34,027 bases of DNA from a virus. Lineage: Duplodnaviria; Heunggongvirae; Uroviricota; Caudoviricetes. Positions 14,587 to 33,026 of the stretch are shown piece after piece (positions within the stretch are counted from its first letter, which is position 1; each line of letters opens with the position of its first letter). The position numbers and the translations under genes were made by a program. The DNA lies in IMG/VR virus record IMGVR_UViG_2698536418_000026. The stretch is one strand, 5' to 3'. A model generated the notes under the pieces. The model made no database searches. It was given only the letters and a program-made list of their open reading frames with translations, and had not been told where the DNA came from.

Positions 14587-14685
14587 CAACCGAATGCGCC
14601 CCGCGCCAGGGCGGCACGCCGGTCAGGGAGGGTGAATCACCTGACGCTGTACCGGCGTCCACCGCCCGACTTTTCAGAGGTAGTC

Positions 14686-15398: not shown

Positions 15399-15401
15399 CG
15401 C

Positions 15402-15683: not shown

Positions 15684-16180
15684 TGCCGGTAATTAACACG
15701 CATCAGAATATCGCCGCCTTTCTCGACATGCTGGCCGTGTCCGAAGGGACGGCAAATCATCCGCTGACGAAAAACCGGGGCTATGACGTGATAGTCACCG
15801 GACTGGACGGGAAGCCGGAAATTTTCACCGACTACAGTGACCACCCGTTCGCACATGGCCGACCGGCGAAGGTGTTTAACCGTCGCGGTGAAAAATCCAC
15901 GGCCTCCGGTCGCTATCAGCAGCTTTACCTGTTCTGGCCGCATTACCGCAAACAGCTTGCCCTGCCGGATTTCAGTCCGTTGTCACAGGACAGACTTGCC
16001 ATTCAGTTGATCCGCGAACGCGGTGCACTGGATGACATCCGGGCGGGACGCATTGAGCGAGCCATTTCACGCTGTCGCAATATCTGGGCGTCCCTGCCGG
16101 GTGCCGGTTACGGTCAGCGTGAGCATTCACTGGAAAAACTGGTCACCGTCTGGCGTACCGCTGGCGGCGTACCGGCTTAA
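15683..16180 (+). CDS. K: Endolysin / lysozyme (P2 gpK-like)
   Basis: 165 aa; lysis-cassette position after the holin. Confidence 0.9.
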   Translation: MPVINTHQNIAAFLDMLAVSEGTANHPLTKNRGYDVIVTGLDGKPEIFTDYSDHPFAHGRPAKVFNRRGEKSTASGRYQQLYLFWPHYRKQLALPDFSPLSQDRLAIQLIRERGALDDIRAGRIERAISRCRNIWASLPGAGYGQREHSLEKLVTVWRTAGGVPA

Positions 16181-16194
16181 ACGGAGTAAACACC

Positions 16195-16620
16195 ATGAAG
16201 AAATTATCCCTTTCACTGATGCTGAACGTGTCGCTGGCGCTGATGCTGGCACTGTCCCTGATTTACCCGCAGAGCGTGGCCGTCAGTTTTGTCGCCGCCT
16301 GGGCGATTCTGGCGACGGTTATCTGTGTGGTTGCCGGTGGTGTCGGCGTGTATGCCACTGAGTATGTGCTGGAACGCTACGGGCGGGAGCTTCCGCCGGA
16401 ATCGCTGGCCGTGAAGATTGTCACGTCGCTGTTTTTGCAGCCGGTGCCGTGGCGCAGACGGGCGGTGGCTCTGGTGGTGATGGTGGCGACGTTTATCTCG
16501 CTGGTCGCTGCCGGGTGGATTTTTACCGCGCTGATTTATCTCGTGGCGTCGGTGTTCTTCCGGCTGATACGTACGGCCTGCCGTCAGCGTTTTGAGGGGC
16601 GGGAACCATGTCAAAGCTGA
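16195..16620 (+). CDS. lysA: Lysis timing membrane protein LysA
   Basis: 141 aa, strongly hydrophobic; same length and position as P2 LysA. Confidence 0.8.
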   Translation: MKKLSLSLMLNVSLALMLALSLIYPQSVAVSFVAAWAILATVICVVAGGVGVYATEYVLERYGRELPPESLAVKIVTSLFLQPVPWRRRAVALVVMVATFISLVAAGWIFTALIYLVASVFFRLIRTACRQRFEGREPCQS

Positions 16621-17033
16621 TGATTGTGATGGTTGTGCTGTTATCGCTGGCGGTGGCGGGGCTGTTTCTGGTGAAGCATGAAAACGCCAGCCTGCGCGCC
16701 TCGCTGGACAGGGCGAACAACGTCGCCAGCGGGCAGCAGACGACCATCACCATGCTGCAAAATCAGCTTCATGTTGCCATCACCAGGGCAGACAAAAACG
16801 AGCTGGCGCAGGTGGCACTGCGTCAGGAACTGGAGAACGCCGCGAAGCGTGAAGCACAGCGCGAGAAAACCATCACGAGGTTACTTAATGAAAACGAAGA
16901 TTTTCGCCGCTGGTACGGCGCTGGCCTGCCTGATGCTGTGCGCCGGTTGCACCAGCGCCCCGCCTGCACTGACGCCAGTGATTGTCGCCAACGCCTGCCC
17001 GAAAGTGAGCCTTTGCCCGATGCCGGGCAGTGA
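16608..17033 (+). CDS. lysB: Inner-membrane spanin (Rz-like) LysB
   Basis: 141 aa with N-terminal TM segment and coiled-coil periplasmic part. Confidence 0.8.
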   Translation: MSKLMIVMVVLLSLAVAGLFLVKHENASLRASLDRANNVASGQQTTITMLQNQLHVAITRADKNELAQVALRQELENAAKREAQREKTITRLLNENEDFRRWYGAGLPDAVRRLHQRPACTDASDCRQRLPESEPLPDAGQ

Positions 17034-17178
17034 CCCGCAGACGAACGGCGATTTAAGTGCCGATATCCGGCAGCTTGAGAACGCGCTGGCACGCTGTGCC
17101 AGCCAGGTAAAAATGATTAAACACTGTCAGGACGAAAACGATGCTCAAACCCGACAGCCTGCGCAGGGCGCTGACTGA
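16888..17178 (+). CDS. lysC: Outer-membrane lipoprotein spanin (Rz1-like) LysC, embedded in +1 frame of lysB
   Basis: Internal Met of the 16678..17178 ORF: MKTKIFAAGTALACLMLCAGC with lipobox L-C-A-G-C; 96 aa as in P2 LysC. Confidence 0.7.
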   Translation: MKTKIFAAGTALACLMLCAGCTSAPPALTPVIVANACPKVSLCPMPGSDPQTNGDLSADIRQLENALARCASQVKMIKHCQDENDAQTRQPAQGAD

Positions 17179-17608
17179 TGCCGTCACGGTGCTGAAAACT
17201 AACCCCGATATGTTGCGGATATTCGTGGATAACGGGAGTATTGCCTCCACGCTGGCGACGTCGCTGTCATTCGAAAAGCGTTACACGCTCAATGTGATTG
17301 TGACCGACTTTACCGGTGATTTTGACCTGCTCATCGTGCCGGTGCTGGCGTGGCTGCGGGAAAATCAGCCCGACATCATGACCACCGACGAAGGCCAGAA
17401 AAAGGGCTTCACGTTTTATGCGGACATCAACAATGACAGCAGCTTTGATATCAGCATCAGCCTGATGCTGACCGAGCGCACGCTGGTCAGTGAGGTGGAT
17501 GGCGCGCTGCATGTGAAGAATATCCCGGAACCCCCGCCGCCGGAGCCGGTCACCCGCCCGATGGAGCTTTATATCAATGGTGAACTGGTGAGCAAGTGGG
17601 ATGAATGA
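17141..17608 (+). CDS. R: Tail completion protein R
   Basis: 155 aa as in P2 R; conserved position. Confidence 0.85.
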   Translation: MLKPDSLRRALTDAVTVLKTNPDMLRIFVDNGSIASTLATSLSFEKRYTLNVIVTDFTGDFDLLIVPVLAWLRENQPDIMTTDEGQKKGFTFYADINNDSSFDISISLMLTERTLVSEVDGALHVKNIPEPPPPEPVTRPMELYINGELVSKWDE

Positions 17609-18053
17609 GTTTAAGCGTTTTGAAGACCGGCTGACCGGACTGATTGAGTCGCTGTCACCGTCAGGGCGTCGGCGACTGAGCGCCGAACTGGCGAAACGTC
17701 TGCGTCAGAGTCAGCAGCGCCGGGTGATGGCACAGAAAGCCCCGGACGGCACACCCTACGCACCACGCCAGCAGCAGAGCGCCAGAAAAAAGACCGGTCG
17801 CGTTAAGCGAAAAATGTTTGCGAAACTTATCACCAGTCGTTTTTTGCATATCCGCGCCAGCCCGGAGCAGGCATCAATGGAGTTTTACGGCGGGAAGTCG
17901 CCGAAAATCGCCAGTGTGCATCAGTTCGGTCTGTCGGAAGAAAACCGGAAAGACGGTAAGAAAATTGATTATCCGGCGCGTCCTCTGCTCGGCTTTACCG
18001 GTGAGGATGTGCAGATGATTGAAGAGATTATCCTGGCTCACCTCGACCGTTAG
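17601..18053 (+). CDS. S: Tail completion protein S
   Basis: 150 aa as in P2 S. Confidence 0.85.
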   Translation: MNEFKRFEDRLTGLIESLSPSGRRRLSAELAKRLRQSQQRRVMAQKAPDGTPYAPRQQQSARKKTGRVKRKMFAKLITSRFLHIRASPEQASMEFYGGKSPKIASVHQFGLSEENRKDGKKIDYPARPLLGFTGEDVQMIEEIILAHLDR

Positions 18054-18054
18054 T

Positions 18055-18083
18055 TGTGCCATTCCCGACACCTCATCGGCACA
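18055..18083 (+). promoter_or_regulatory. Dyad TGTGCC-N17-GGCACA upstream of V (candidate late-promoter activator site)
   Basis: Perfect 6-bp inverted repeat read directly; P2 late promoters are Ogr-dependent with TGT/ACA dyads, but the spacing here differs from the remembered TGT-N12-ACA. Confidence 0.25.
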
Positions 18084-18119
18084 TTGCCGCCGGTATGACC
18101 CGGCGGCATCCTTCCCGTT

Positions 18120-18755
18120 ATGAACACTCTCGCAAATATTCAGGAACTCGCGCGCGCACTGCGCAACATGATCCGCACCGGCATTATCGTCGAAACCGAC
18201 CTTAACGCCGGTCGCTGCCGTGTGCAGACCGGCGGCATGTGCACCGACTGGCTTCAGTGGCTGACCCATCGCGCCGGACGTTCGCGCACATGGTGGGCAC
18301 CTTCCGTGGGGGAACAGGTGCTGATTCTGGCCGTGGGCGGTGAACTCGACACGGCGTTCGTTCTGCCGGGGATTTATTCCGGCGATAACCCCGCGCCGTC
18401 TACGTCGGCGGATGCCCTGCATATCCGTTTCCCTGACGGGGCGGTGATTGAGTATGAACCCGAAACCAGTGCACTCACGGTAAGCGGAATTAAAACGGCC
18501 AGCGTGACGGCTTCTGATTCTGTTACTGCCACGGTGCCGGTGGTCATGGTGAAAGCGTCAACCCGCATCACCCTGGACACCCCGGAGGTGGTCTGCACCA
18601 ACAGACTGATTACCGGCACGCTGGAAGTGCAGAAGGGCGGGACGATGCGCGGCAACATTAAACATACCGGCGGTGAACTCTCATCAAACGGTAAGGTACT
18701 GCATACCCATAAACACCCCGGCGACAGCGGCGGCACAACCGGGAGTCCTCTATGA
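18120..18755 (+). CDS. V: Baseplate central spike (P2 gpV-like)
   Basis: 211 aa as in P2 V. Confidence 0.9.
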   Translation: MNTLANIQELARALRNMIRTGIIVETDLNAGRCRVQTGGMCTDWLQWLTHRAGRSRTWWAPSVGEQVLILAVGGELDTAFVLPGIYSGDNPAPSTSADALHIRFPDGAVIEYEPETSALTVSGIKTASVTASDSVTATVPVVMVKASTRITLDTPEVVCTNRLITGTLEVQKGGTMRGNIKHTGGELSSNGKVLHTHKHPGDSGGTTGSPL

Positions 18756-19099
18756 CAGTGCGTTATCTTGGAATGAATCGCAGTGATGGCCTGACTGTCA
18801 CTGACCTTGAGCATATCAGCCAGAGTATCGGCGATATCCTGCGCACGCCGGTCGGCTCACGGGTGATGCGTCGTGATTACGGCTCATTGCTGGCGTCAAT
18901 GATTGACCAGCCGCAGACCCCGGCGCTTGAGTTGCAGATTAAGGTCGCCTGTTACATGGCGGTGCTGAAATGGGAACCCCGCGTCACCCTGTCATCCGTC
19001 ACCACTGAGCGCAGTTTTGACGGGCGAATGACGGTCACGTTAACCGGCCAGCACAACGACACCGGCCAGCCACTTTCGTTAACCATCCCTGTGAGTTGA
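18752..19099 (+). CDS. W: Baseplate wedge protein (gpW, T4 gp25-like)
   Basis: 115 aa as in P2 W. Confidence 0.9.
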   Translation: MTVRYLGMNRSDGLTVTDLEHISQSIGDILRTPVGSRVMRRDYGSLLASMIDQPQTPALELQIKVACYMAVLKWEPRVTLSSVTTERSFDGRMTVTLTGQHNDTGQPLSLTIPVS

Positions 19100-19103
19100 A
19101 ACC

Positions 19104-20012
19104 ATGCCGATTATCGACCTGAACCAGCTACCCGCACCGGATGTGGTCGAGGAGCTGGACTTTGAAACCATTCTTGCCGAACGCAAGGCGACACTGATTT
19201 CCCTTTACCCGGAAGACCAGCAGGAGGCGGTTGCCCGTACCCTGACGCTGGAATCCGAGCCTCTCGTCAAACTGCTGGAGGAAAATGCTTATCGTGAGCT
19301 TATCTGGCGTCAGCGTGTGAATGAGGCCGCACGGGCGGTAATGCTGGCCTGTGCCGCCGGTAATGACCTTGATGTGATTGGTGCCAATTACAACACCACG
19401 CGCCTGATTATCACCCCGGCAGATGATTCGACCATCCCGCCGACACCGGCAGTGATGGAGTCTGACACCGATTATCGTCTGCGTATTCAGCAGGCGTTTG
19501 AGGGCTTAAGCGTCGCCGGGTCGGTGGGAGCCTATCAGTATCATGGTCGCAGTGCCGACGGGCGTGTCGCGGATATTTCTGTCACCAGTCCGTCTCCGGC
19601 CTGCGTCACCATCTCTGTGCTGTCACGTGAAAATAACGGTGTGGCATCCGAAGACCTGCTGGCGGTGGTGCGCAACGCCCTTAATGGTGAGGACGTCAGA
19701 CCGGTGGCCGACCGTGTGACCGTGCAGTCTGCCGTCATCGTTGAATACCAGATAAATGCCACGCTTTACCTTTATCCTGGCCCCGAAAGCGAACCCATTC
19801 GCGCTGCCGCCGTGAAAAAACTGGAAGCGTATATCACGGCACAGCACCGGCTGGGGCGCGACATCCGACTGTCTGCCATTTATGCCGCTTTGCATGTGGA
19901 AGGCGTGCAGCGTGTCGAACTGGCTGCACCGCTGGCCGACATCGTGCTCAACAATACTCAGGCGTCTTTCTGTACCGAATACAGCGTCGTGACCGGAGGC
20001 TCGGATGAGTGA
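19104..20012 (+). CDS. J: Baseplate protein J
   Basis: 302 aa as in P2 J. Confidence 0.9.
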   Translation: MPIIDLNQLPAPDVVEELDFETILAERKATLISLYPEDQQEAVARTLTLESEPLVKLLEENAYRELIWRQRVNEAARAVMLACAAGNDLDVIGANYNTTRLIITPADDSTIPPTPAVMESDTDYRLRIQQAFEGLSVAGSVGAYQYHGRSADGRVADISVTSPSPACVTISVLSRENNGVASEDLLAVVRNALNGEDVRPVADRVTVQSAVIVEYQINATLYLYPGPESEPIRAAAVKKLEAYITAQHRLGRDIRLSAIYAALHVEGVQRVELAAPLADIVLNNTQASFCTEYSVVTGGSDE

Positions 20013-20616
20013 TTCGCGACTGCTGCCGACCGGCTCATCACCGCTTGAAGTCGCTGCCGCAAAAGCCTGTGCGGAAATTGAAAAAACGCCGGTCAGTATT
20101 CGTGAGCTGTGGAACCCGGACACCTGCCCGGCAAATCTGCTGCCGTGGCTGGCGTGGTCATTTTCGGTTGACCGCTGGGATGATAAGTGGCCGGAAGCGA
20201 CAAAACGCGCTGTTATCCGCGATGCGTATTTCATTCACTGCCATAAGGGCACTATAGGCGCAATCCGGCGTGTGGTGGAGCCGCTCGGCTATCTGATTGA
20301 GGTGAGGGAGTGGTGGCAGCTCAACGAGGAGCCGGGGACGTTCCGCATCGTTGTTGGCGTGCTTGAGCAGGGTATTACCGAGGAAATGTATCAGGAGCTG
20401 GAGCGCCTCGTTGCTGATGCAAAACCGGCAAGCCGCCATCTGACGGGACTGGCTATCAGCTTAAGTACAACCGGCAACATTTTTGCCGGTGCGGGATGCT
20501 ATCACGGCGACGCCATGACGGTTTATCCCTACACCCCGGAGGCCATTATTGTCGGAGGGGATTATTTCCCGGCCTCGGCCATTCATTTAATTGATAACCT
20601 GAGAGTAAACGCATGA
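20005..20616 (+). CDS. I: Baseplate/tail protein I
   Basis: 203-aa ORF overlapping the J stop (ATGAGTGA) and the H start. Confidence 0.9.
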   Translation: MSDSRLLPTGSSPLEVAAAKACAEIEKTPVSIRELWNPDTCPANLLPWLAWSFSVDRWDDKWPEATKRAVIRDAYFIHCHKGTIGAIRRVVEPLGYLIEVREWWQLNEEPGTFRIVVGVLEQGITEEMYQELERLVADAKPASRHLTGLAISLSTTGNIFAGAGCYHGDAMTVYPYTPEAIIVGGDYFPASAIHLIDNLRVNA

Positions 20617-21977
20617 CAGTGAAATACTACGCCATTCTGACTAATCAGGGCGCAGCACGGCTGGCTAACGCGACGATGCTCGGCAGTAAGCTGAATCTGA
20701 CGCAAATGGCCGTTGGTGATGCGAATGGTGTCTTGCCGACCCCAGACCCGGCACAGACAAAACTGATTAACCAGAAACGCATCGCGCCGCTGAATCTTCT
20801 GAGTGTTGACCCGAACAACCAGAGCCAGATTATTGCGGAGCAAATCATCCCTGAGAACGAGGGCGGATTCTGGATCCGTGAGATTGGGCTTTATGATGAT
20901 GAAGGCGTACTCATTGCGGTGGCGAACTGCCCGGAAACGTACAAACCGCAGTTGCAGGAAGGCAGTGGTCGTACCCAGACTATCCGCATGATTCTGGTTG
21001 TCACGAATACCGAAGCCATCACGCTGAAAATCGACCCGTCGGTGGTACTGGCGACCCGTAAATACGTGGATGATGAAGTCCTGGAATTAAAGCTGTATGT
21101 GGATGACCAGATGAGGAACCACATTGCCGCACAGGATCCTCATACCCAGTATGCGCAGAAACATAATCCGACATTTACCGGAGAACCAAAAGCGCCGACG
21201 CCTGCCGCAGGAAATAACACCACGCGGATTGCGACCACTGCGTTTGTTCAGGCCGCTATTACCGCTCTGATTAACGGTGCGCCAGCCACACTGGACACAC
21301 TGAAAGAAATTGCCGCGGCCATTAACAATGACCCGAAATTCAGCACCACCATTAACAATGCGCTGTCAGGTAAGCAGCCACTGGATGAGACGCTGACTCA
21401 TTTGAGTGGAAAGGATGTTGCCGGTCTTCTCGCATACCTTGGTTTGGGAGAAGGCTCTGCATTACCGGTTGGGGTGCCTGTTCCGTGGCCTTCAGCCACT
21501 CCGCCAACAGGCTGGCTGAAATGCAATGGTGCGGCTTTTTCTGCTGAAGAATACCCGGAACTGGCAAAGGCTTACCCGACCAATAAATTGCCTGATTTAC
21601 GCGGTGAATTTATTCGTGGCTGGGATGATGGACGTGGAGTGGATGCGGGGCGAGCCTTGCTAAGTCTTCAGGATGACTCTTTTGAAGCTCACAGGCATGA
21701 GTCCTTTTTTTACGCGGGTATTTCACGCAATGAAATACCATTAAAAAATCTTCCAAGTTCAGACGAGATGCTGACTTTAAGTTCTACAACTAATGCCTTG
21801 TCCCCGGACGGTATTGATGCCACTAATTCGTTAATTGGTAATGATGATTACAACTGTCTGATTGAAGGAAATAAAAATAACAAACGAACAGCGACGGGGT
21901 TGAGTACCAGTATTGTCGGTGCAGCAGAGACACGCCCACGTAATATTTCATTTAATTACATTGTGAGGGCTGCATGA
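20613..21977 (+). CDS. H: Tail fibre protein H (constant N-terminus plus invertible C-terminal tip with tail-collar motif)
   Basis: 454 aa; C-terminal part has the phage tail-collar signature (...NKLPDLRGEFIRGWDDGRG...); residues 91-454 are duplicated in inverted orientation at 24115..25208. Confidence 0.9.
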   Translation: MTVKYYAILTNQGAARLANATMLGSKLNLTQMAVGDANGVLPTPDPAQTKLINQKRIAPLNLLSVDPNNQSQIIAEQIIPENEGGFWIREIGLYDDEGVLIAVANCPETYKPQLQEGSGRTQTIRMILVVTNTEAITLKIDPSVVLATRKYVDDEVLELKLYVDDQMRNHIAAQDPHTQYAQKHNPTFTGEPKAPTPAAGNNTTRIATTAFVQAAITALINGAPATLDTLKEIAAAINNDPKFSTTINNALSGKQPLDETLTHLSGKDVAGLLAYLGLGEGSALPVGVPVPWPSATPPTGWLKCNGAAFSAEEYPELAKAYPTNKLPDLRGEFIRGWDDGRGVDAGRALLSLQDDSFEAHRHESFFYAGISRNEIPLKNLPSSDEMLTLSSTTNALSPDGIDATNSLIGNDDYNCLIEGNKNNKRTATGLSTSIVGAAETRPRNISFNYIVRAA

Positions 21978-22196
21978 TGTATAATGCCATCTTGAATAGT
22001 AAATTTATTGCCACAAAGGCAGGAGAGATTACCGTTTATAACTATGACAGTGAGACACGGGAGTATATTTCTGCATCAACTGAATATCTTGCTGTGGGTG
22101 TCGGTATCCCTGCATATTCCTGTTTAGATGCTCCTGGCACACATAAGGCGGGTTATGCAATCTGCCGTTCGGCAGATTTAAACTCATGGGAATATG
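20884..22196. repeat. Inverted repeat A (copy 1): H codons 91-454 plus G codons 1-74
   Basis: Mirrored at 23896..25208 (x maps to 46092-x); embedded ORF translations are identical in the ORF track (e.g. 20891..21124 vs 24968..25201, 21352..21567 vs 24525..24740). Confidence 0.9.
21427..21452. other. gix/hix-like 26-bp crossover site inside H (TTCTCGCATACC-TT-GGTTTGGGAGAA)
   Basis: Imperfect palindrome matching the remembered Gin/Hin half-site pattern TTnnCnAAACC; a near-identical site lies at the 5' end of the alternative tip ORF (22744-22769); both encode the shared peptide LGLGE. Confidence 0.45.
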
Positions 22197-22261
22197 AACG
22201 CGTTGACGTGACTCCCCTGCAGCCAGCAAACGCCCGGCCTGCTCCCACTCACTCGTGGTGA
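21974..22261 (+). pseudogene. Tail fibre assembly gene G, N-terminal fragment (first ~74 codons) fused out of frame into the antisense of the invertase copy
   Basis: First 73 aa identical to the full G at 23513..24118, then diverges exactly at the breakpoint nt 22197. Confidence 0.6.
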
Positions 22262-22694
22262 GTTTAGGACGTCTGCCACCAATACGACCTTTGGCTCTGG
22301 CCGCTTCCAGCCCGGCTCGAGTCCGCTCGACAATGAGTTCTCGTTCCATTTCGGCCAGGGCACCCATCACATGAAAGAAAAAACGCCCCATCGGCGTGCT
22401 GGTATCAATAGCATCCGTCAGGCTGCGAAAATTAACGCCGCGTTCGCGCAGCTCCTCAACCAGAATGACCAGATGCCGCATACTACGCCCCAGCCGGTCC
22501 AGCTTCCAGACTACCAGTGTATCCCCCTCCGATAATGTCCTGAGCAGTTTTTTCAGTCCCGGCCTGTCGGACTTCGTGCCGCTGATTTTGTCCTCAAAAA
22601 TCAGCTCACATCCTGCGCACTCCAGCGCGTTACGCTGCAATTCCGTGCTCTGGTCATTTGTTGACACGCGTACATAGCCAATAAGCATGAGCAT
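22029..22694 (-). pseudogene. Gin-family invertase, truncated copy (catalytic domain codons 1-~165, HTH DNA-binding C-terminus replaced by junction-derived sequence)
   Basis: First 168 aa identical to the intact invertase at 25984..26583; C-terminus reads into antisense G/H sequence after breakpoint nt 22197. Confidence 0.6.
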
Positions 22695-22715
22695 CCCCCT
22701 GAATAAAAACCGGAG

Positions 22716-23105
22716 ATGATGCCAGTTAGCCGTAATCTCTGCATTTTCTTAAACGTTGGTTTGGGGGAATTGGCTCTGGCTGGCGCAACAACCGGCGCTA
22801 TGTTGGTGAATGGGTATGTAGCAATTCCATTAATTATTTCTGGCGTTCGGAGACCACTTATTATCCAGTGGGGAGTGGGGCAGTTTGGGGGAAGTCTGGG
22901 GGATGATGCGGGATATTTAAACAATTTCCCTTTCGCTTTTCCGTCGGCGTGCTACGTGATGGTTGCCAGCCACGTGGGGCATACACCTTCGGGTGCCGGA
23001 ATACTATCTGCTTCCGCAATCACAAAAAGCGGCTTTCGTGGTTTTTCCAGCGTAGTGACTGCCGCAAATCCTGTATCGGGCTGTTATGTTGCTATAGGAG
23101 GGTGA
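22716..23105 (+). CDS. Alternative tail fibre C-terminal tip segment (Hv'), expressed only when fused to the H constant part by inversion
   Basis: 129-aa ATG-to-stop ORF; the segment after the crossover site (GLGELALAG...) would replace the H tip; followed in the same orientation by its own chaperone gene. Confidence 0.6.
   Translation: MMPVSRNLCIFLNVGLGELALAGATTGAMLVNGYVAIPLIISGVRRPLIIQWGVGQFGGSLGDDAGYLNNFPFAFPSACYVMVASHVGHTPSGAGILSASAITKSGFRGFSSVVTAANPVSGCYVAIGG
22744..22769. other. gix/hix-like crossover site (TTTTCTTAAACG-TT-GGTTTGGGGGAA) at the 5' end of the alternative fibre tip, 21 bp from the invertase start
   Basis: Same half-site pattern as the H-internal site; arrangement (site between divergent invertase and variable fibre segment) mirrors Mu gixR/gin. 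Confidence 0.45.
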
Positions 23106-23106
23106 T

Positions 23107-23541
23107 GTGTTTTTTAGTCCATCTTTAAATATTTTTGTGAATCCTGCGCTTAAGGATGACTACATCAATGTAAATTCATGGCCAGATGATGCTGTTGAAG
23201 TTGATGAGCAGGTGTATATTGAGTTTTCCGGATTACCGCCGAAAGGAAAAATCCGTATCGCTGGGGAAAATGGTTTTCCTGCATGGTCTGAAATTCCACC
23301 ACCAACGCATGAGGAACAGATTGCCGCAGCCGAATTGAAAAAACAGCAATTGATTAATCAGTCCAACGAATATATGAATACCAAGCAATGGCCTGGTAAA
23401 GCGGCTATTGGTCGTCTGAAAGGTGAGGAACTGGCGCAATATAATTTGTGGCTGGATTATCTGGACGCACTGGAACTGGTTGATACCTCCAGTGCTCCAG
23501 ATATTGAATGGCCTACGCCTCCGGCAGTTCAGGCCAGATGA
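23107..23541 (+). CDS. Alternative tail fibre assembly chaperone (Tfa', U'-like)
   Basis: 144 aa; C-terminus ...DTSSAPDIEWPTPP resembles the G C-terminus (...DTSTAPDVIWPELP); convergent 29-bp overlap with G as for U/U' in Mu-type invertible segments. Confidence 0.8.
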   Translation: MFFSPSLNIFVNPALKDDYINVNSWPDDAVEVDEQVYIEFSGLPPKGKIRIAGENGFPAWSEIPPPTHEEQIAAAELKKQQLINQSNEYMNTKQWPGKAAIGRLKGEELAQYNLWLDYLDALELVDTSSAPDIEWPTPPAVQAR

Positions 23542-24118
23542 CATCCGGCGCGGTGCTCGTATCTGTTGCCGTCACCGCGTCAATGTAATCCAGCGCAGCG
23601 TTAAGTCGGGCGGTTTCTGCCTGCGTCAGATTCCGTCCGGCCTGCAATTTCAGCTGAATCAGACTAATGGAAGCCATTGCAGTATCAATCAGTGACTGAC
23701 GCTGTGCTTCTGCCGCGCCTACTGCGGCGCTATGCTGTGCCACAGTATCTGTTACCCATTTCTCACCATCCCATTCATCGTATGGCGTTAACGGGGCGAT
23801 AGTGGTTGTATTTTCAGGATAATCACCCGGAGCTGTGATTTCTTTCGATTCTCCTGTTTCGGTGCTATAGATGATTTCACCGCGATGGTCTGACACATAT
23901 TCCCATGAGTTTAAATCTGCCGAACGGCAGATTGCATAACCCGCCTTATGTGTGCCAGGAGCATCTAAACAGGAATATGCAGGGATACCGACACCCACAG
24001 CAAGATATTCAGTTGATGCAGAAATATACTCCCGTGTCTCACTGTCATAGTTATAAACGGTAATCTCTCCTGCCTTTGTGGCAATAAATTTACTATTCAA
24101 GATGGCATTATACATCAT
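23513..24118 (-). CDS. G: Tail fibre assembly chaperone G (full length)
   Basis: 201 aa, directly downstream of and overlapping the H-fragment stop on the minus strand; typical Tfa C-terminus. Confidence 0.85.
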   Translation of the reverse strand: MMYNAILNSKFIATKAGEITVYNYDSETREYISASTEYLAVGVGIPAYSCLDAPGTHKAGYAICRSADLNSWEYVSDHRGEIIYSTETGESKEITAPGDYPENTTTIAPLTPYDEWDGEKWVTDTVAQHSAAVGAAEAQRQSLIDTAMASISLIQLKLQAGRNLTQAETARLNAALDYIDAVTATDTSTAPDVIWPELPEA

Positions 24119-25208
24119 GCAGCCCTCACAATGTAATTAAATGAAATATTACGTGGGCGTGTCTCTGCTGCACCGACAATACTGGTACTCAACCCCGTCG
24201 CTGTTCGTTTGTTATTTTTATTTCCTTCAATCAGACAGTTGTAATCATCATTACCAATTAACGAATTAGTGGCATCAATACCGTCCGGGGACAAGGCATT
24301 AGTTGTAGAACTTAAAGTCAGCATCTCGTCTGAACTTGGAAGATTTTTTAATGGTATTTCATTGCGTGAAATACCCGCGTAAAAAAAGGACTCATGCCTG
24401 TGAGCTTCAAAAGAGTCATCCTGAAGACTTAGCAAGGCTCGCCCCGCATCCACTCCACGTCCATCATCCCAGCCACGAATAAATTCACCGCGTAAATCAG
24501 GCAATTTATTGGTCGGGTAAGCCTTTGCCAGTTCCGGGTATTCTTCAGCAGAAAAAGCCGCACCATTGCATTTCAGCCAGCCTGTTGGCGGAGTGGCTGA
24601 AGGCCACGGAACAGGCACCCCAACCGGTAATGCAGAGCCTTCTCCCAAACCAAGGTATGCGAGAAGACCGGCAACATCCTTTCCACTCAAATGAGTCAGC
24701 GTCTCATCCAGTGGCTGCTTACCTGACAGCGCATTGTTAATGGTGGTGCTGAATTTCGGGTCATTGTTAATGGCCGCGGCAATTTCTTTCAGTGTGTCCA
24801 GTGTGGCTGGCGCACCGTTAATCAGAGCGGTAATAGCGGCCTGAACAAACGCAGTGGTCGCAATCCGCGTGGTGTTATTTCCTGCGGCAGGCGTCGGCGC
24901 TTTTGGTTCTCCGGTAAATGTCGGATTATGTTTCTGCGCATACTGGGTATGAGGATCCTGTGCGGCAATGTGGTTCCTCATCTGGTCATCCACATACAGC
25001 TTTAATTCCAGGACTTCATCATCCACGTATTTACGGGTCGCCAGTACCACCGACGGGTCGATTTTCAGCGTGATGGCTTCGGTATTCGTGACAACCAGAA
25101 TCATGCGGATAGTCTGGGTACGACCACTGCCTTCCTGCAACTGCGGTTTGTACGTTTCCGGGCAGTTCGCCACCGCAATGAGTACGCCTTCATCATCATA
25201 AAGCCCAA
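23896..25208. repeat. Inverted repeat A (copy 2, reverse complement of 20884..22196)
   Basis: See copy 1; boundaries determined by base-by-base comparison at both ends. Confidence 0.9.
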
Positions 25209-25230
25209 AGCGTCCAGATAATCCAGCCAC
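24115..25230 (-). pseudogene. Tail fibre H fragment (codons 91-454, lacks N-terminal virion-attachment part and its own start)
   Basis: 371-aa ORF identical to H residues ~84-454 after a short junction-derived N-terminus (MAGLSGRFG). Confidence 0.7.
24640..24665. other. gix/hix-like site, inverted copy of the H-internal site
   Basis: Reverse complement of 21427..21452, inside inverted repeat A copy 2. Confidence 0.45.
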
Positions 25231-25571
25231 AAATTATATTGCGCCAGTTCCTCACCTTTCAGACGACCAATAGCCGCTTTACCAGGCCATTGCTTGGTAT
25301 TCATATATTCGTTGGACTGATTAATCAATTGCTGTTTTTTCAATTCGGCTGCGGCAATCTGTTCCTCATGCGTTGGTGGTGGAATTTCAGACCATGCAGG
25401 AAAACCATTTTCCCCAGCGATACGGATTTTTCCTTTCGGCGGTAATCCGGAAAACTCAATATACACCTGCTCATCAACTTCAACAGCATCATCTGGCCAT
25501 GAATTTACATTGATGTAGTCATCCTTAAGCGCAGGATTCACAAAAATATTTAAAGATGGACTAAAAAACAC
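25101..25571 (-). pseudogene. Alternative chaperone Tfa' copy with junction-altered C-terminus
   Basis: First ~120 codons identical to 23107..23541, then diverges at breakpoint nt 25209 into antisense H sequence. Confidence 0.6.
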
Positions 25572-25572
25572 A

Positions 25573-25962
25573 TCACCCTCCTATAGCAACATAACAGCCC
25601 GATACAGGATTTGCGGCAGTCACTACGCTGGAAAAACCACGAAAGCCGCTTTTTGTGATTGCGGAAGCAGATAGTATTCCGGCACCCGAAGGTGTATGCC
25701 CCACGTGGCTGGCAACCATCACGTAGCACGCCGACGGAAAAGCGAAAGGGAAATTGTTTAAATATCCCGCATCATCCCCCAGACTTCCCCCAAACTGCCC
25801 CACTCCCCACTGGATAATAAGTGGTCTCCGAACGCCAGAAATAATTAATGGAATTGCTACATACCCATTCACCAACATAGCGCCGGTTGTTGCGCCAGCC
25901 AGAGCCAATTCCCCCAAACCAACGTTTAAGAAAATGCAGAGATTACGGCTAACTGGCATCAT
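25573..25962 (-). CDS. Alternative tail fibre C-terminal tip segment (Hv'), second copy, in the orientation expected for the silent position next to the invertase
   Basis: Identical 129-aa translation to 22716..23105; divergent from the intact invertase with a 21-bp gap. Confidence 0.6.
   Translation of the reverse strand: MMPVSRNLCIFLNVGLGELALAGATTGAMLVNGYVAIPLIISGVRRPLIIQWGVGQFGGSLGDDAGYLNNFPFAFPSACYVMVASHVGHTPSGAGILSASAITKSGFRGFSSVVTAANPVSGCYVAIGG
25909..25934. other. gix/hix-like crossover site adjacent to the intact invertase (gixR-equivalent)
   Basis: Reverse complement of 22744..22769. Confidence 0.45.
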
Positions 25963-25983
25963 CTCCGGTTTTTATTCAGGGGG

Positions 25984-26583
25984 ATGCTCATGCTTATTGG
26001 CTATGTACGCGTGTCAACAAATGACCAGAGCACGGAATTGCAGCGTAACGCGCTGGAGTGCGCAGGATGTGAGCTGATTTTTGAGGACAAAATCAGCGGC
26101 ACGAAGTCCGACAGGCCGGGACTGAAAAAACTGCTCAGGACATTATCGGAGGGGGATACACTGGTAGTCTGGAAGCTGGACCGGCTGGGGCGTAGTATGC
26201 GGCATCTGGTCATTCTGGTTGAGGAGCTGCGCGAACGCGGCGTTAATTTTCGCAGCCTGACGGATGCTATTGATACCAGCACGCCGATGGGGCGTTTTTT
26301 CTTTCATGTGATGGGTGCCCTGGCCGAAATGGAACGAGAACTCATTGTCGAGCGGACTCGAGCCGGGCTGGAAGCGGCCAGAGCCAAAGGTCGTATTGGT
26401 GGCAGACGTCCTAAACTCACCACGAGTGAGTGGGAGCAGGCCGGGCGTTTGCTGGCTGCAGGGGAGTCACGTCAACGCGTGGCACTGATTTTTGATATTG
26501 GCCTGTCCACGCTCTATAAAAAATTCCCCGCCTCAGTGACAAAAAATAAATTGTGTCATCCCTTAGCCAACCGGGACAAATAG
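25984..26583 (+). CDS. Site-specific DNA invertase, serine recombinase of the Gin/Hin/Cin/Pin family (intact)
   Basis: 199-aa ORF (probable start at second Met, MLIGYVRVSTNDQ); catalytic Ser in RVSTNDQ; near-collinear match to remembered Gin sequence (DTLVVWKLDRLGRS, MGRFFFHVMGALAEMERE) and C-terminal HTH (LIFDIGLSTLYKKFPA). Confidence 0.9.
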   Translation: MLMLIGYVRVSTNDQSTELQRNALECAGCELIFEDKISGTKSDRPGLKKLLRTLSEGDTLVVWKLDRLGRSMRHLVILVEELRERGVNFRSLTDAIDTSTPMGRFFFHVMGALAEMERELIVERTRAGLEAARAKGRIGGRRPKLTTSEWEQAGRLLAAGESRQRVALIFDIGLSTLYKKFPASVTKNKLCHPLANRDK

Positions 26584-26642
26584 CCTGACATCTCCGGCAC
26601 AACTGAAAATATCACTCACCCATTAACCACGGAGTTAAACGG

Positions 26643-27833
26643 ATGAGTGACTATCATCACGGCGTGCAGGTGCTGGAGATTAACGACGGCACCCGCGTCA
26701 TTTCCACCGTATCCACTGCCATTGTCGGCATGGTCTGCACGGCCAGCGATGCGGATGCGGAAACCTTCCCCCTCAATAAACCTGTGCTGATTACCAATGT
26801 GCAGAGCGCAATTGCAAAGGCCGGTAAAAAAGGCACGCTGGCGGCATCGTTGCAGGCCATCGCTGACCAGTCAAAACCGGTTACCGTTGTCGTGCGTGTT
26901 GAAGACGGCACCGGCGACGACGAAGAAACGAAACTCGCGCAGACCGTTTCCAATATCATCGGCACCACTGACGAAAACGGTCAGTATACCGGACTGAAAG
27001 CCCTGCTGGCGGCGGAGTCGATAACCGGTGTTAAACCGCGTATTCTCGGTGTGCCGGGACTGGATACCAAAGAGGTGGCTGTTGCACTGGCATCCGTCTG
27101 TCAGAAGCTGCGCGCTTTCGGGTATATCAGCGCATGGGGCTGTAAAACCATTTCCGAGGTGAAAGCCTACCGCCAGAATTTCAGCCAGCGTGAGCTGATG
27201 GTCATCTGGCCGGATTTCCTCGCATGGGATACGGTCGCCAGTACCACCGCCACCGCGTATGCCACCGCCCGTGCGCTGGGTCTGCGCGCTAAAATCGACC
27301 AGGAGCAGGGCTGGCATAAAACGCTGTCCAACGTCGGGGTGAACGGTGTTACCGGCATCAGCGCGTCCGTATTCTGGGATTTGCAGGAGTCCGGCACCGA
27401 TGCTGACCTGCTTAACGAGTCAGGCGTCACAACGCTGATTCGCCGTGACGGTTTCCGCTTCTGGGGTAACCGTACCTGCTCTGATGACCCGCTGTTCCTC
27501 TTTGAAAACTACACCCGCACCGCGCAGGTGCTGGCCGACACGATGGCTGAGGCGCACATGTGGGCGGTGGACAAGCCCATCACCGCAACGCTGATTCGCG
27601 ACATCGTTGACGGCATCAATGCCAAATTCCGTGAGTTGAAAACAAACGGCTATATCGTGGATGCGACCTGCTGGTTCAGCGAAGAATCCAACGATGCGGA
27701 AACCCTCAAGGCCGGAAAACTGTATATCGACTACGACTATACACCGGTACCTCCTCTTGAAAACCTGACCCTGCGCCAGCGTATTACCGATAAATACCTG
27801 GCAAATCTGGTCACTTCGGTTAACAGCAATTAA
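26643..27833 (+). CDS. FI: Contractile tail sheath protein (P2 FI-like)
   Basis: 396 aa as in P2 FI. Confidence 0.9.
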   Translation: MSDYHHGVQVLEINDGTRVISTVSTAIVGMVCTASDADAETFPLNKPVLITNVQSAIAKAGKKGTLAASLQAIADQSKPVTVVVRVEDGTGDDEETKLAQTVSNIIGTTDENGQYTGLKALLAAESITGVKPRILGVPGLDTKEVAVALASVCQKLRAFGYISAWGCKTISEVKAYRQNFSQRELMVIWPDFLAWDTVASTTATAYATARALGLRAKIDQEQGWHKTLSNVGVNGVTGISASVFWDLQESGTDADLLNESGVTTLIRRDGFRFWGNRTCSDDPLFLFENYTRTAQVLADTMAEAHMWAVDKPITATLIRDIVDGINAKFRELKTNGYIVDATCWFSEESNDAETLKAGKLYIDYDYTPVPPLENLTLRQRITDKYLANLVTSVNSN

Positions 27834-27845
27834 GGAGCCTGACCG

Positions 27846-28364
27846 ATGGCAATGCCGCGCAAACTCAAGTTAATGAACGTCTTTCTGAACGGCTACAGCT
27901 ATCAGGGCGTTGCAAAGTCCGTCACGCTGCCAAAACTGACCCGTAAGCTCGAAAACTATCGCGGTGCGGGGATGAACGGCAGCGCACCGGTAGACCTCGG
28001 CCTTGATGACGATGCGCTGTCAATGGAGTGGTCGCTCGGTGGCTTCCCGGATTCGGTTATCTGGGAGCTTTACGCCGCAACCGGTGTGGATGCCGTGCCG
28101 ATTCGTTTTGCAGGCTCTTACCAGCGCGACGATACCGGCGAAACGGTGGCCGTCGAAGTGGTCATGCGTGGCCGTCAGAAAGAAATCGACACCGGCGAGG
28201 GTAAACAGGGAGAAGACACCGAGTCGAAAATCTCCGTGGTCTGCACCTATTTCCGGCTGACGATGGACGGTAAGGAGCTGGTCGAAATTGACACCATCAA
28301 CATGATTGAGAAGGTGAACGGCGTCGACCGACTGGAGCAACACCGCCGCAATATCGGCCTGTGA
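27846..28364 (+). CDS. FII: Tail tube protein (P2 FII-like)
   Basis: 172 aa as in P2 FII. Confidence 0.9.
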   Translation: MAMPRKLKLMNVFLNGYSYQGVAKSVTLPKLTRKLENYRGAGMNGSAPVDLGLDDDALSMEWSLGGFPDSVIWELYAATGVDAVPIRFAGSYQRDDTGETVAVEVVMRGRQKEIDTGEGKQGEDTESKISVVCTYFRLTMDGKELVEIDTINMIEKVNGVDRLEQHRRNIGL

Positions 28365-28420
28365 TTTTCATCCGGTCAGCCTGGCTGACCGGTTAACCCT
28401 GATTCAGAAGAGAGAAAACC

Positions 28421-28696
28421 ATGAACAAAGAAAATGTGATTACCCTGGACAATCCGGTCAAGCGTGGTGAGCAGGTCATCGAACAGGTCACGCTGATGAA
28501 ACCCAGTGCCGGGACGCTGCGCGGTGTCAGTCTGGCTGCGGTCGCGAACTCCGAAGTCGATGCACTGATTAAGGTGCTGCCGCGCATGACGGCACCGATG
28601 CTGACCGAGCAGGAAGTCGCCGCGCTGGAACTGCCTGACCTTGTGGCGCTGGCCGGTAAGGTGGTCGGTTTTTTGTCGCCGAACTCGGTGCAGTAA
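28421..28696 (+). CDS. E: Tail assembly chaperone E
   Basis: 91 aa as in P2 E; contains slippery heptamer. Confidence 0.85.
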   Translation: MNKENVITLDNPVKRGEQVIEQVTLMKPSAGTLRGVSLAAVANSEVDALIKVLPRMTAPMLTEQEVAALELPDLVALAGKVVGFLSPNSVQ

Positions 28697-28848
28697 CGTT
28701 CCCGAAAAATCTCTCGGTCGATGACCTGATGGCGGATGTGGCAGTGATATTTCACTGGCCGCCATCAGAACTGTATCCCATGAGCCTGACCGAACTCATC
28801 ACATGGCGCGAAAAGGCGCTCCGGCGAAGCGGAAACACGAATGAGTAA
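28421..28848 (+). CDS. Tail assembly chaperone E+E' produced by programmed -1 frameshift
   Basis: Slippery sequence G GTT TTT TG at 28667-28675 in the E frame; the -1 frame stays open to TAA at 28846-28848, overlapping the T start, as in P2. Confidence 0.6.
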
Positions 28849-31288
28849 CAATGTAAAATTACAGGTATTGCTCAGGGCTGTTGACCAGGCATCCCGCCCG
28901 TTTAAATCCATCCGCACAGCGAGCAAATCGCTGTCGGGGGATATCCGGGAAACACAAAAATCACTGCGCGAGCTGAACGGTCAGGCATCCCGTATTGAGG
29001 GATTTCGCAAGACCAGTGCACAGCTCGCCGTGACTGGTCATGCACTTGAAAAGGCTCGGCAGGAAGCCGAAGCCCTTGCCACACAGTTTAAAAACACTGA
29101 ACGTCCGACCCGTGCTCAGGCGAAAGTGCTGGAATCCGCAAAGCGTGCGGCGGAGGACTTACAGGCGAAATATAACCGCCTGACGGATTCCGTTAAACGC
29201 CAGCAGCGGGAACTGGCCGCTGTGGGAATTAATACCCGCAATCTTGCACATGATGAGCAGGGACTGAAAAACCGTATCAGTGAAACCACCGCACAGCTTA
29301 ACCGTCAGCGTGATGCGCTGGCGCGTGTCAGTGCGCAACAGGCAAAACTTAACGCAGTAAAACAGCGTTATCAGGCCGGAAAGGAACTGGCCGGAAATAT
29401 GGCCTCAGTGGGCGCTGCCGGTGTGGGGATTGCGGCGGCGGGAACGATGGCCGGAGTTAAGTTGCTGATGCCCGGTTATGAGTTTGCGCAGAAAAACTCA
29501 GAATTGCAGGCCGTGCTCGGAGTGGCAAAAGACTCCGCCGAAATGACCGCACTACGCAAACAGGCGCGCCAGCTCGGTGACAACACCGCCGCCTCGGCGG
29601 ATGATGCGGCCGGTGCACAGATAATCATCGCGAAAGCGGGTGGGGATGTTGATGCCATTCAGGCGGCAACGCCGGTCACGCTGAATATGGCGCTGGCGAA
29701 CCGCCGCACGATGGAAGAAAACGCCGCCCTGCTGATGGGGATGAAATCCGCCTTTCAGCTTTCAAACGATAAGGTCGCTCATATCGGGGATGTTCTCTCC
29801 ATGACGATGAACAAAACCGCCGCCGATTTTGACGGCATGAGCGATGCGCTGACCTATGCCGCACCTGTGGCAAAAAATGCCGGTGTCAGCATTGAAGAAA
29901 CTGCCGCAATGGTCGGGGCGCTGCATGATGCAAAAATCACAGGCTCAATGGCGGGGACGGGAAGCCGTGCCGTGTTAAGTCGCCTGCAGGCACCGACGGG
30001 AAAAGCATGGGATGCACTCAAAGAGCTTGGCGTGAAAACCTCAGACAGTAAGGGGAATACCCGACCAGTATTTACCATTCTGAAAGAAATGCAGGCCAGC
30101 TTTGAGAAAAACCGGCTCGGTACTGCCCAGCAGGCTGAATACATGAAAACTATTTTCGGGGAGGAGGCCAGCTCAGCCGCCGCCGTGCTGATGACTGCCG
30201 CCTCAACCGGAAAGCTGGACAAACTGACCGCTGCGTTTAAAGCCTCAGACGGGAAGACCGCCGAGCTGGTAAATATCATGCAGGACAACCTCGGCGGTGA
30301 CTTTAAGGAGTTTCAGTCCGCTTATGAGGCGGTGGGGACTGACCTGTTTGACCAGCAGGAAGGCGCACTGCGTAAGCTCACGCAGACGGCCACAAAGTAT
30401 GTGTTAAAACTCGACGGCTGGATCCAGAAAAACAAATCACTGGCGTCAACCATCGGCATCATTGTCGGTGGTGCACTGGCACTGATTGGTGTCATCGGTG
30501 CCATTGGCCTCGTAGCCTGGCCGGTTATCACCGGCATCAATGCCATCATCGCGGCAGCAGGCGCAATGGGGGCAATCTTCACGACGGTTGGCAGTGCTGT
30601 TATGACCGCCATCGGAGCGATTAGCTGGCCGGTTGTGGCCGTGGTGGCCGCCATTGTCGCCGGGGCGTTGCTTATCCGTAAATACTGGGAGCCTGTCAGC
30701 GCATTCTTTGGCGGTGTGGTGGAAGGGCTGAAAGCGGCATTTGCGCCGGTGGGGGAACTGTTCACGCCACTTAAGCCGGTGTTTGACTGGTTGGGCGAAA
30801 AGTTACAGGCCGCGTGGCAGTGGTTTAAAAACCTGATCGCCCCGGTTAAAGCCACCCAGGACACCCTGAACCGTTGCCGTGACACGGGCGTCATGTTCGG
30901 GCAGGCACTGGCTGACGCGTTGATGCTGCCGCTTAATGCGTTCAACAAACTGCGCAGTGGTATTGACTGGGTACTGGAAAAACTCGGTGTTATCAACAAA
31001 GAGTCAGACACACTTGACCAGACCGCCGCCAGAACTCATGCCGCCACGTATGGCACCGGTGGTTATATTCCGGCGACCAGCTCTTATGCAGGCTATCAGG
31101 CTTATCAGCCGGTTACGGCACCGGCTGGCCGCTCTTATGTGGACCAGAGTAAAAACGAATATCACATCAGTCTGACGGGCGGTACTGCGCCGGGGACTCA
31201 GCTCGACCGCCAGTTACAGGATGCGCTCGAAAAATACGAGCGGGATAAACGTGCGCGCGCCCGTGCCAGCATGATGCATGACGGTTAA
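28841..31288 (+). CDS. T: Tail tape measure protein (P2 gpT-like)
   Basis: 815 aa as in P2 T; coiled-coil N-terminal half, Gly/Ala-rich hydrophobic segment in the middle. Confidence 0.9.
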   Translation: MSNNVKLQVLLRAVDQASRPFKSIRTASKSLSGDIRETQKSLRELNGQASRIEGFRKTSAQLAVTGHALEKARQEAEALATQFKNTERPTRAQAKVLESAKRAAEDLQAKYNRLTDSVKRQQRELAAVGINTRNLAHDEQGLKNRISETTAQLNRQRDALARVSAQQAKLNAVKQRYQAGKELAGNMASVGAAGVGIAAAGTMAGVKLLMPGYEFAQKNSELQAVLGVAKDSAEMTALRKQARQLGDNTAASADDAAGAQIIIAKAGGDVDAIQAATPVTLNMALANRRTMEENAALLMGMKSAFQLSNDKVAHIGDVLSMTMNKTAADFDGMSDALTYAAPVAKNAGVSIEETAAMVGALHDAKITGSMAGTGSRAVLSRLQAPTGKAWDALKELGVKTSDSKGNTRPVFTILKEMQASFEKNRLGTAQQAEYMKTIFGEEASSAAAVLMTAASTGKLDKLTAAFKASDGKTAELVNIMQDNLGGDFKEFQSAYEAVGTDLFDQQEGALRKLTQTATKYVLKLDGWIQKNKSLASTIGIIVGGALALIGVIGAIGLVAWPVITGINAIIAAAGAMGAIFTTVGSAVMTAIGAISWPVVAVVAAIVAGALLIRKYWEPVSAFFGGVVEGLKAAFAPVGELFTPLKPVFDWLGEKLQAAWQWFKNLIAPVKATQDTLNRCRDTGVMFGQALADALMLPLNAFNKLRSGIDWVLEKLGVINKESDTLDQTAARTHAATYGTGGYIPATSSYAGYQAYQPVTAPAGRSYVDQSKNEYHISLTGGTAPGTQLDRQLQDALEKYERDKRARARASMMHDG

Positions 31289-31302
31289 GGAGGTGACGAA
31301 AA

Positions 31303-32945: not shown

Positions 32946-33026
32946 TGTTTTTATTTTATCTGTTTGTTTTATAAGGATAAATTAACTAAAATGGCACCAT
33001 CAACAAAACCGGAAGAGGTGCTCGCG

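Follow-up and report, generated by a model that had tools for sequence, protein, structure and literature searches.

Does an inverted duplication written across the tail-fibre locus of a prophage record a true rearrangement of phage DNA, or was it produced on the way from sequencing reads to a public assembly? This question is raised by a 34,027-nucleotide stretch of viral DNA (IMG/VR record IMGVR_UViG_2698536418_000026; hereafter the window, by which we mean the whole stretch), in which truncated copies of four tail-fibre and invertase genes accompany intact ones.

Results

Two pairs of perfect inverted repeats enclose a single-copy centre

Comparing the window with itself, we found that 20884-22196 is the reverse complement of 23896-25208 (1313 nt, 0 mismatches) and that 22198-23468 is the reverse complement of 25210-26480 (1271 nt, 0 mismatches). 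A longer second arm returned by the program, 22198-23473 against 25205-26480, takes in two mismatches, so the shorter boundaries are exact. Perfect repeats of about 1.3 kb, as found across 20884-26480, are far from plausible as a product of chance. The letters at 22197 and 25209 are both A and fit neither parental continuation (T or C expected at 22197; T or T at 25209). This self-comparison reproduced the pattern reported in a preliminary description of the sequence, namely two duplicated 1.3-kb arms, a 427-bp single-copy centre and one odd A per junction. The statement there that the second pair "recurs" was right in that the repeat is exact, but the wording hid the inversion, as both pairs are inverted. 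The features of the locus are collected in the table.

Table. Genes, crossover sites, junctions and constituent contigs of the tail-fibre locus (window coordinates).
Feature	Position	Strand	Description
Contig X	1-22196	+	left part of P2-like prophage, through H and first 74 codons of G; ends 744 nt beyond left crossover site; N follows in record
Contig Y	22198-25208	-	3011 bp; natural locus in full, reverse-complemented, running from H codon 91 via invertible segment to about invertase codon 165
Contig Z	25210-34027	+	from within antisense Tfa' through antisense Hv', right crossover site and intact invertase to sheath, tube, tape measure and remaining prophage
Scaffold gap 1	22197	.	A in window; N at record position 11585 (CYCB01000023.1, L006)
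Scaffold gap 2	25209	.	A in window; N at record position 14597 (CYCB01000023.1, L006)
Single-copy centre	23469-23895	-	427 nt; 3' end of Tfa' and C-terminal two thirds of G; middle of invertible segment; only stretch of locus represented once
Left crossover site (gix-like, 26 bp)	21427-21452	+	TTCTCGCATACC TT GGTTTGGGAGAA; inside H at constant/variable boundary; CH4804 alignment changes strand here
Right crossover site (26 bp)	25909-25934	-	inverted relative to left site; directly upstream of invertase gene; core TTGGTTTGGG common to left site
Artefactual second right crossover site	22744-22769	+	in contig Y, 22198-23468 arm; core at 22756
Artefactual second left crossover site	24640-24665	-	in contig Y, 23896-25208 arm; core at 24644
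Intact H	20613-21977		454 aa; PF12571 and PF07484
Intact G	23513-24118	-	Caudo_TAP
Intact Tfa'	23107-23541	+	144 aa; Caudo_TAP
Intact serine DNA invertase	25984-26583	+	199 aa from first ATG; Resolvase PF00239 (4.5e-52) and HTH_7 PF02796 (4.8e-13)
Artefactual truncated G	21974-22261	+	74 real codons, then read-through over gap 1
Artefactual invertase chimera	22029-22694	-	residues to about 165, then across gap 1 into antisense G and H; Resolvase domain, no HTH_7
Artefactual 5'-truncated second H	24115-25230	-	from codon 91; ORF start made across gap 2; 354-aa product in CYCB01000023.1
Artefactual Tfa' chimera	25101-25571	-	about 120 real codons, then read-through over gap 2

Both novel junctions are single-N joins in the public record

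We compared the window with the public record CYCB01000023.1, part of the E. coli draft assembly GCA_001283405.1, to which an exact look-up of the intact 454-aa H protein had led. An 827-aa helicase, listed in 850 blocks, proved too widespread to lead to the outer parts of the record. The comparison covered window positions 10613-31977, which lie between outer parts at 1-10612 and 31978-34027, and over this range 21,363 of 21,365 positions were identical in a gap-free alignment. The two exceptions were Ns in the record, opposite window positions 22197 and 25209, and no other N occurs in the record across the matching stretch. Because CYCB01000023.1 carries N exactly at the two junctions and is otherwise identical to the window, both novel junctions are unsequenced scaffold joins of one N each, and the supposed "untemplated A" is how the window displays an N. 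The preliminary description had treated these single bases as part of the breakpoints; they are real letters of the window, but as placeholders in the public record they are no signature of how a junction formed. A literature search for papers naming GCA_001283405.1 found none.

Three overlapping contigs collapse to a simple natural locus

Divided at the two Ns, the window falls into three pieces, contigs X, Y and Z. Each of X, the reverse complement of Y, and Z is an exact substring of a collapsed locus of 31,441 bp, 2,586 bp shorter than the window, with the reverse complement of Y beginning at collapsed position 20884. The only window 31-mers missing from either strand of the collapsed locus are those across the two N positions. 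Contig Y is correctly placed in the scaffold, yet overlaps of 1313 nt with X and 1271 nt with Z were left unmerged.

The collapsed locus reads H constant part, crossover site, Hv, G, antisense Tfa', antisense Hv', crossover site, invertase. When we flipped it at the central TT of both 26-bp sites, it aligned with a prophage of E. coli CH4804 over 5,815 bp, gap-free and at 99.0% identity. Records L002, L003, L005, L007 and L009 have the simple arrangement too, and the natural locus is widespread among the 5,426 complete E. coli genomes searched and is present in phages such as pro483. Held against the natural locus and CH4804, the topology and gene map of the preliminary description were correct, its placing of the breakpoints away from the crossover sites was borne out by alignment and site positions, and its prediction of an excess of about 2.6 kb over related prophages agrees with natural loci that are 2,586 bp shorter.

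The underlying locus is an invertible tail-fibre switch

Beneath the apparent duplication lies a tail-fibre host-range switch of the well-known Gin/Cin/Pin invertible type, carried by a common P2-like prophage. The constant N-terminus of the fibre lies outside the invertible segment, and inside it two alternative C-termini, paired with one Caudo_TAP chaperone apiece, are opposed tail to tail; the alternative fibre tip matches PF21882 (Pfam). The two 26-bp crossover sites are imperfect dyads in inverted orientation that share the core TTGGTTTGGG and a central TT/AA, and the strand switch in the CH4804 alignment falls exactly there. The core occurs only at the four copies of the true sites (21439, 22756, 24644 and 25913), hundreds of bases from the junctions. 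Both orientations occur naturally, with CH4804 opposite to the collapsed window locus and L002 and others oriented as in the window. H is 454 aa long in one switch state and 391 aa in the other.

The window arrangement does not recur in other genomes or collections

The 8.4-kb arrangement of the window was found at one place in 0 of 5,426 complete E. coli genomes, and none of the phage records searched carries it. Neither junction was found in the phage records or in the same 5,426 genomes, and in the genomes matches to junction-spanning queries ended exactly at the N position. Searches with junction 34-mers of the genome, viral and metagenome contig collections gave zero matches. Genome contigs were scanned with the A form of each junction; queries with a spacer of 0-4 bases covered both junctions in the viral collection and, in the metagenome collection, junction 1. 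The exact A-form query missed even the source record, because the source has N there.

The same locus is mis-assembled differently in a second assembly

An independent assembly, GCA_001265535.1, includes a contig (JHRP01000069.1, L004) that is 100% identical to window positions 10613-22196 (about 11.6 kb). This contig is a hairpin free of Ns: the left flank leads into the segment, after which the left flank returns in reverse complement, the arms being at least 8,664 bp long. It encodes a 454-aa H on one arm and a 391-aa H on the other. Its sequence indicates that both segment orientations were present among the reads of a single sample, and the hairpin arose because the segment was read in both.

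The joins generate chimeric gene calls

In CYCB01000023.1, open reading frames crossing the joins were called as a 219-aa resolvase fusion, a 156-aa Tfa fusion and the truncated second H, and the 95-aa truncated G has no gene call. The intact invertase is called at 197 aa in public annotations, and relatives label it "recombinase family protein" or "DNA invertase". An exact protein look-up of the 221-aa chimera, the 95-aa truncated G and the 199-aa invertase found none on record at those lengths. The 199-aa invertase, and probably the 221-aa chimera too, went unmatched because the start codons chosen in the public calls make them two residues shorter, at 197 and 219 aa.

Discussion

We conclude that the duplication is not a real biological feature and has no biological significance. 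Almost certainly, it is an artefact of scaffolding and gap filling in a short-read E. coli draft, arising at an ordinary Gin/Cin/Pin-type segment. The perfect inverted duplications appear because the middle contig entered reverse-complemented, with its overlaps with both neighbours unmerged. The sequenced culture would have contained the segment in both orientations, a state documented for invertible loci of P2-like prophages in single-colony E. coli cultures (PMC4272514), and coexisting orientations made by the invertase are most likely the root cause of the error. All three contigs would follow orientation 1, with ends running some 543-744 nt beyond the crossover sites; the extensions measure 744, 546, 543 and 699 nt. 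The scaffolder may then have put the segment in the orientation-2 placement, and if every piece is cut back as far as the crossover sites, what remains is precisely the natural locus in orientation 2. At each gap, the extensions entering from left and right presumably could not be merged, leaving one N per join. Scaffolding and gap-filling tools write a single N for gaps that are negative or cannot be closed. The joins imply some read-pair support for the order and orientation of the scaffold, which we would assign to orientation-2 molecules.

A step of contig-end extension is required, because de Bruijn assemblers normally give no contigs overlapping by 1.3 kb. We infer this step from the geometry of the extensions and from how gap-filling tools work. 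By their authors' own accounts, SSPACE and GapFiller are greedy and can make false joins; joins are recorded as N, and GapFiller extends each edge of a gap and closes it only when both extensions merge (PMC5320598; PMC3446322). A direct mis-join through the short crossover repeats alone was considered and rejected: the junctions lie 543-744 nt from the sites and share no homology, and extension followed by a scaffold join fits.

The preliminary description had offered two alternatives, a structural variant made by template switching or illegitimate recombination and a mis-assembly of an invertible region. The evidence favours the latter, both junctions being N in the record and the pieces between the Ns overlapping copies of one natural locus. 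In its full form the variant would be a real dupINVdup, an inversion with flanking 1.3-kb inverted duplications produced by two template switches or by illegitimate recombination, with the junction bases merely left ambiguous. The order as written, A-C'-B'-A'-C, fits such an event, but only as scaffolded, and the joins point indirectly to read pairs favouring that order and orientation. We nevertheless regard a real event as very unlikely. Unique junctions normally assemble easily, whereas CYCB01000023.1 has N at the two novel junctions and nowhere else in the compared stretch; true perfect inverted copies of 1.3 kb would usually be collapsed by de Bruijn assembly; and neither junction appeared in any other genome or contig searched. 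The switch, in its two natural states, accounts for everything, and a prophage in which kilobase palindrome-like repeats separate additional, truncated copies of H, G, Tfa' and the invertase would be unstable.

It is still less probable, and hardly to be credited, that the arrangement was made after download, while the window was being prepared, and is foreign to the public assembly. The change of N to A at both junctions shows that some processing took place, but the whole duplicated arrangement is already there base for base in CYCB01000023.1, and nothing except that change is specific to the window. The least credible origin of all is action of the DNA invertase at secondary (quasi) crossover sites, for instance between sister chromosomes. 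Quasi-sites are occasionally used by Cin and Gin, and the adjoining invertase, with both of its domains, looks active from its sequence. However, conservative site-specific inversion cannot duplicate DNA, no TTGGTTTGGG core lies near the junctions, and these are Ns in CYCB01000023.1. The earlier verdict that the structure is not a product of the invertase therefore holds for the positions of the junctions, but it leaves aside the orientations coexisting through the enzyme, which probably set the error in motion.

These results have consequences for reading such data. A source N may be displayed as A in this data set, so whenever a lone "untemplated" base marks a breakpoint, the original record should be consulted. 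Invertible segments repeatedly yield false inverted duplications or hairpin contigs in draft assemblies, as illustrated by two types of artefact at one locus in two independent assemblies, and such artefacts put chimeric gene calls into public records.

Comparison with known systems

The rearrangement class dupINVdup is a complex one, consisting of an inversion flanked by inverted duplications. If real, the window would hold a bacterial rearrangement of this type at a site-specific inversion locus. Our literature search on rearrangements of the dupINVdup type returned only general papers on inverted duplication. As the record is written, its segments follow one another in an order and orientation resembling those of human dupINVdup and DUP-TRP/INV-DUP events attributed to template switching (FoSTeS/MMBIR). 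Genuine human dupINVdup events, however, have sequenced breakpoints, often with microhomology or short insertions, whereas the junctions of the window are unsequenced Ns.

A closer likeness is to false joins of the SSPACE/GapFiller type, with which the window shares N-marked joins, a probable independent extension of edges that failed to merge, and a locus polymorphic in orientation. The hairpin contig JHRP01000069.1 comprises the same prophage and the same invertible locus, but the window differs from it in topology, being a scaffold of three contigs with Ns.

The switch itself belongs with the Din family (Mu G/Gin, P1 C/Cin, e14 P/Pin and Salmonella Hin). It has the same adjacent serine invertase with Resolvase and HTH_7 domains, the same inverted 26-bp sites with a common central dinucleotide, and the same constant N-terminus served by two C-termini with Caudo_TAP chaperones. 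Unlike the switches of Mu and P1, that of the window lies between H and FI of a P2-like (Peduovirus) prophage, and an invertible tail-fibre locus has already been reported in P2-like prophages of EPEC (PMC4272514).

The junction bases are Ns in the source record

The window carries two pairs of perfect inverted repeats, with 20884-22196 the reverse complement of 23896-25208 (1313 nt) and 22198-23468 the reverse complement of 25210-26480 (1271 nt), around a single-copy centre of 427 nt (23469-23895). The analysis confirmed that the duplication is present in the sequence, in the layout that the preliminary description had reported; a repeat finder returned a slightly longer second arm, but this takes in two mismatches, so the exact boundaries are those originally given. 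At 22197 and again at 25209 there is an A that agrees with the continuation of neither flank.

Eight loci were returned when the intact H tail-fibre protein was looked up by exact sequence. One of them, in the E. coli draft assembly GCA_001283405.1 (record CYCB01000023.1, 81,544 bp), has the same unusual gene order and matches window 10613-31977 at 21,363 of 21,365 positions, without gaps. The two differences are 22197 and 25209, where CYCB01000023.1 has N, and there is no other N in the compared stretch. Because the window contains no non-ACGT letters, each N must have become A during its preparation. Thus, the single odd base that had been noted at each breakpoint is present in the window but is an N in the source record, and its reading as an untemplated junction signature fails. 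Both A's are therefore gap placeholders, and both novel adjacencies are scaffold joins with no contiguous sequence behind them. Any N of CYCB01000023.1 opposite window 1-10612 or 31978-34027 would likewise show as A, and other single-base oddities in the window merit comparison with this record.

The collapsed locus is an invertible switch

A P2-like E. coli prophage (Peduovirus) makes up the window, whose first 20.8 kb are 99.2% identical to a prophage of E. coli CH4804. Natural relatives have the order H, chaperone, antisense chaperone, antisense alternative tip and invertase, in a locus 2,586 bp shorter than that of the window, as anticipated by an earlier estimate of about 2.6 kb. We removed the extra copies by joining window 1-22196, the reverse complement of 23469-23895, and 25210 to the end, giving a collapsed locus of 31,441 bp. 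This is collinear with CH4804 apart from one inverted 1.9-kb segment, and the strand switches sit at two 26-bp imperfect-dyad sites. When flipped at the central TT, it yields a single gap-free alignment of 5,815 bp to CH4804 (99.0% identity); the true locus is therefore a standard Gin/Cin/Pin-type invertible tail-fibre switch.

Genes and crossover sites of the tail-fibre locus, in window coordinates
Feature	Position (strand)	Length	Domains or sequence
Tail-fibre H		454 aa	Phage_tail_fib + Collar
Chaperone G		201 aa as ORF	Caudo_TAP
Chaperone Tfa'		144 aa	Caudo_TAP
Alternative fibre tip			Gp53-like_C
Serine invertase	25984-26583 (+)		Resolvase + HTH_7
Left crossover site	21427-21452 (+)		TTCTCGCATACC-TT-GGTTTGGGAGAA
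Right crossover site	25909-25934 (-)		Inverted partner of left site, same TTGGTTTGGG core

CH4804 (L001, hit H46; NZ_CM166344.1) is the closest complete-genome relative (99.2%), with its invertible segment opposite to that of the collapsed locus and an IS3-family transposase insertion inside the region homologous to window 1-20800. The invertase N-terminus, MLMLIGY, has two in-frame ATGs (25984-25992; 22686-22694 in the chimeric copy), and public gene calls start at the second, giving 197 aa for the intact and 219 aa for the chimeric copy. That start explains why exact-sequence look-up of the longer intact ORF found no match, and probably explains the same result for the longer chimeric ORF.

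Other features of the prophage

An 827-aa DEAD/DEAH-ResIII helicase (6018-8501, minus strand), encoded between gene A (replication) and the portal gene, aligns end to end with PDC-S28, a candidate defence family in PADLOC (1055 bits), and is widespread, occurring in 850 blocks of the collection; at the same spot, the related locus L015 has an additional reverse transcriptase and retron Ec48 effector. At the far right end, past D and the ogr-equivalent region, a 213-aa ORF (33386-34027, plus strand) has no match in Pfam and hits PADLOC PD-T4-10_B (1.3e-34) over the C-terminal part of the profile only (139-346 of 353). Possible readings are a defence cargo gene and a fragment. The left edge of the window coincides exactly with the stop codon of a 336-aa integrase gene (1-1011, minus strand; Int_N + Phage_integrase), and the right edge, at 34027, exactly with that of the last ORF. 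This suggests a predicted prophage cut at gene boundaries, in which case the window probably does not include the attachment sites.

Origin of the arrangement

CYCB01000023.1 consists, over this region, of contig X (to 22196), an N, contig Y (22198-25208), an N, and contig Z (from 25210). X, Z and the reverse complement of Y each occur exactly within the collapsed locus, and no 31-mer of the 34-kb window is missing from both strands of that locus except those across the two Ns. The 3,011 bp of contig Y, bounded by H codon 91 and roughly codon 165 of the invertase, take in the entire natural locus; the contig is correctly positioned but reverse-complemented, unmerged with X (1313-nt overlap) and with Z (1271-nt overlap). 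The inverted duplications are these overlaps of Y with its neighbors. All three contigs would be in orientation 1 of the switch; trimmed to the crossover sites, the scaffold order would become orientation 2, as in CH4804. The two natural states thus seem superimposed in the record: the contigs would carry the sequence of the majority state, and their placement in the scaffold would reflect the other state or an arbitrary choice.

Even in E. coli cultures derived from a single colony, invertible loci of P2-like prophages occur in both orientations, visibly so in paired-end data (PMC4272514). Joins made by paired-read scaffolders are written as N; in GapFiller, each contig edge is extended into the gap, which is closed only when the two extensions merge; both SSPACE and GapFiller are called greedy, with false joins possible; and GapFiller is run for 120 iterations in one widely used pipeline (PMC5320598; PMC3446322). 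If edges were extended along the majority orientation from a segment contig placed in the other one, the two extensions could never merge and would leave an irreducible gap. The extensions beyond the four site copies (744, 546, 543, and 699 nt) are consistent with this route, which we infer to be the most likely origin.

A second record, JHRP01000069.1 (GCA_001265535.1), is 100% identical to window 10613-22196 and is a mis-assembly of a different kind at the same switch. Its locus (2186-21365) is a hairpin contig without Ns, in which the left flank leads into the invertible segment and then into the reverse complement of that flank; the arms are at least 8,664 bp long and 99.97% identical. One arm encodes the 454-aa H and the other a 391-aa alternative H fusion, which indicates that a single sample yielded sequence of both orientations and that the invertible switch confuses assemblers.

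We weighed edge extension and scaffold joining against three other explanations. The arrangement was not made during preparation of the window, as it is already in CYCB01000023.1. Action of the invertase at secondary sites can in practice be dismissed: no core motif is present other than in the four true site copies, the crossover sites are 543-744 nt away from the novel junctions (in keeping with the preliminary description, which had placed the breakpoints away from gix-like sites), and conservative inversion cannot duplicate DNA. A real dupINVdup-type variant is highly improbable. It requires that both Ns, the only ones in the compared stretch, happen to coincide with the only two junctions that are novel, and that these unique sequences went unassembled while 1.3-kb perfect inverted repeats were written twice. 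Among 5,426 complete E. coli genomes and the phage records, none has the 8.4-kb query in one place, and 141-nt junction-spanning queries gave thousands of matches, all ending at the junction (query 1-70 or 72-141). The junction strings were not found in the genome (A form), viral or metagenome contig collections, with a 0-4 base spacer allowed for junction 1 in the viral and metagenome collections and for junction 2 in the viral collection.

Of the two possibilities originally raised, a structural variant with untemplated bases is unsupported, both junction bases being N in CYCB01000023.1, whereas mis-assembly of an invertible region is supported by those Ns and by pieces that are exact parts of the collapsed locus. 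We conclude that the inverted duplication is almost certainly not a real biological feature, and that the real content of the locus is an invertible tail-fibre switch of a kind already known.
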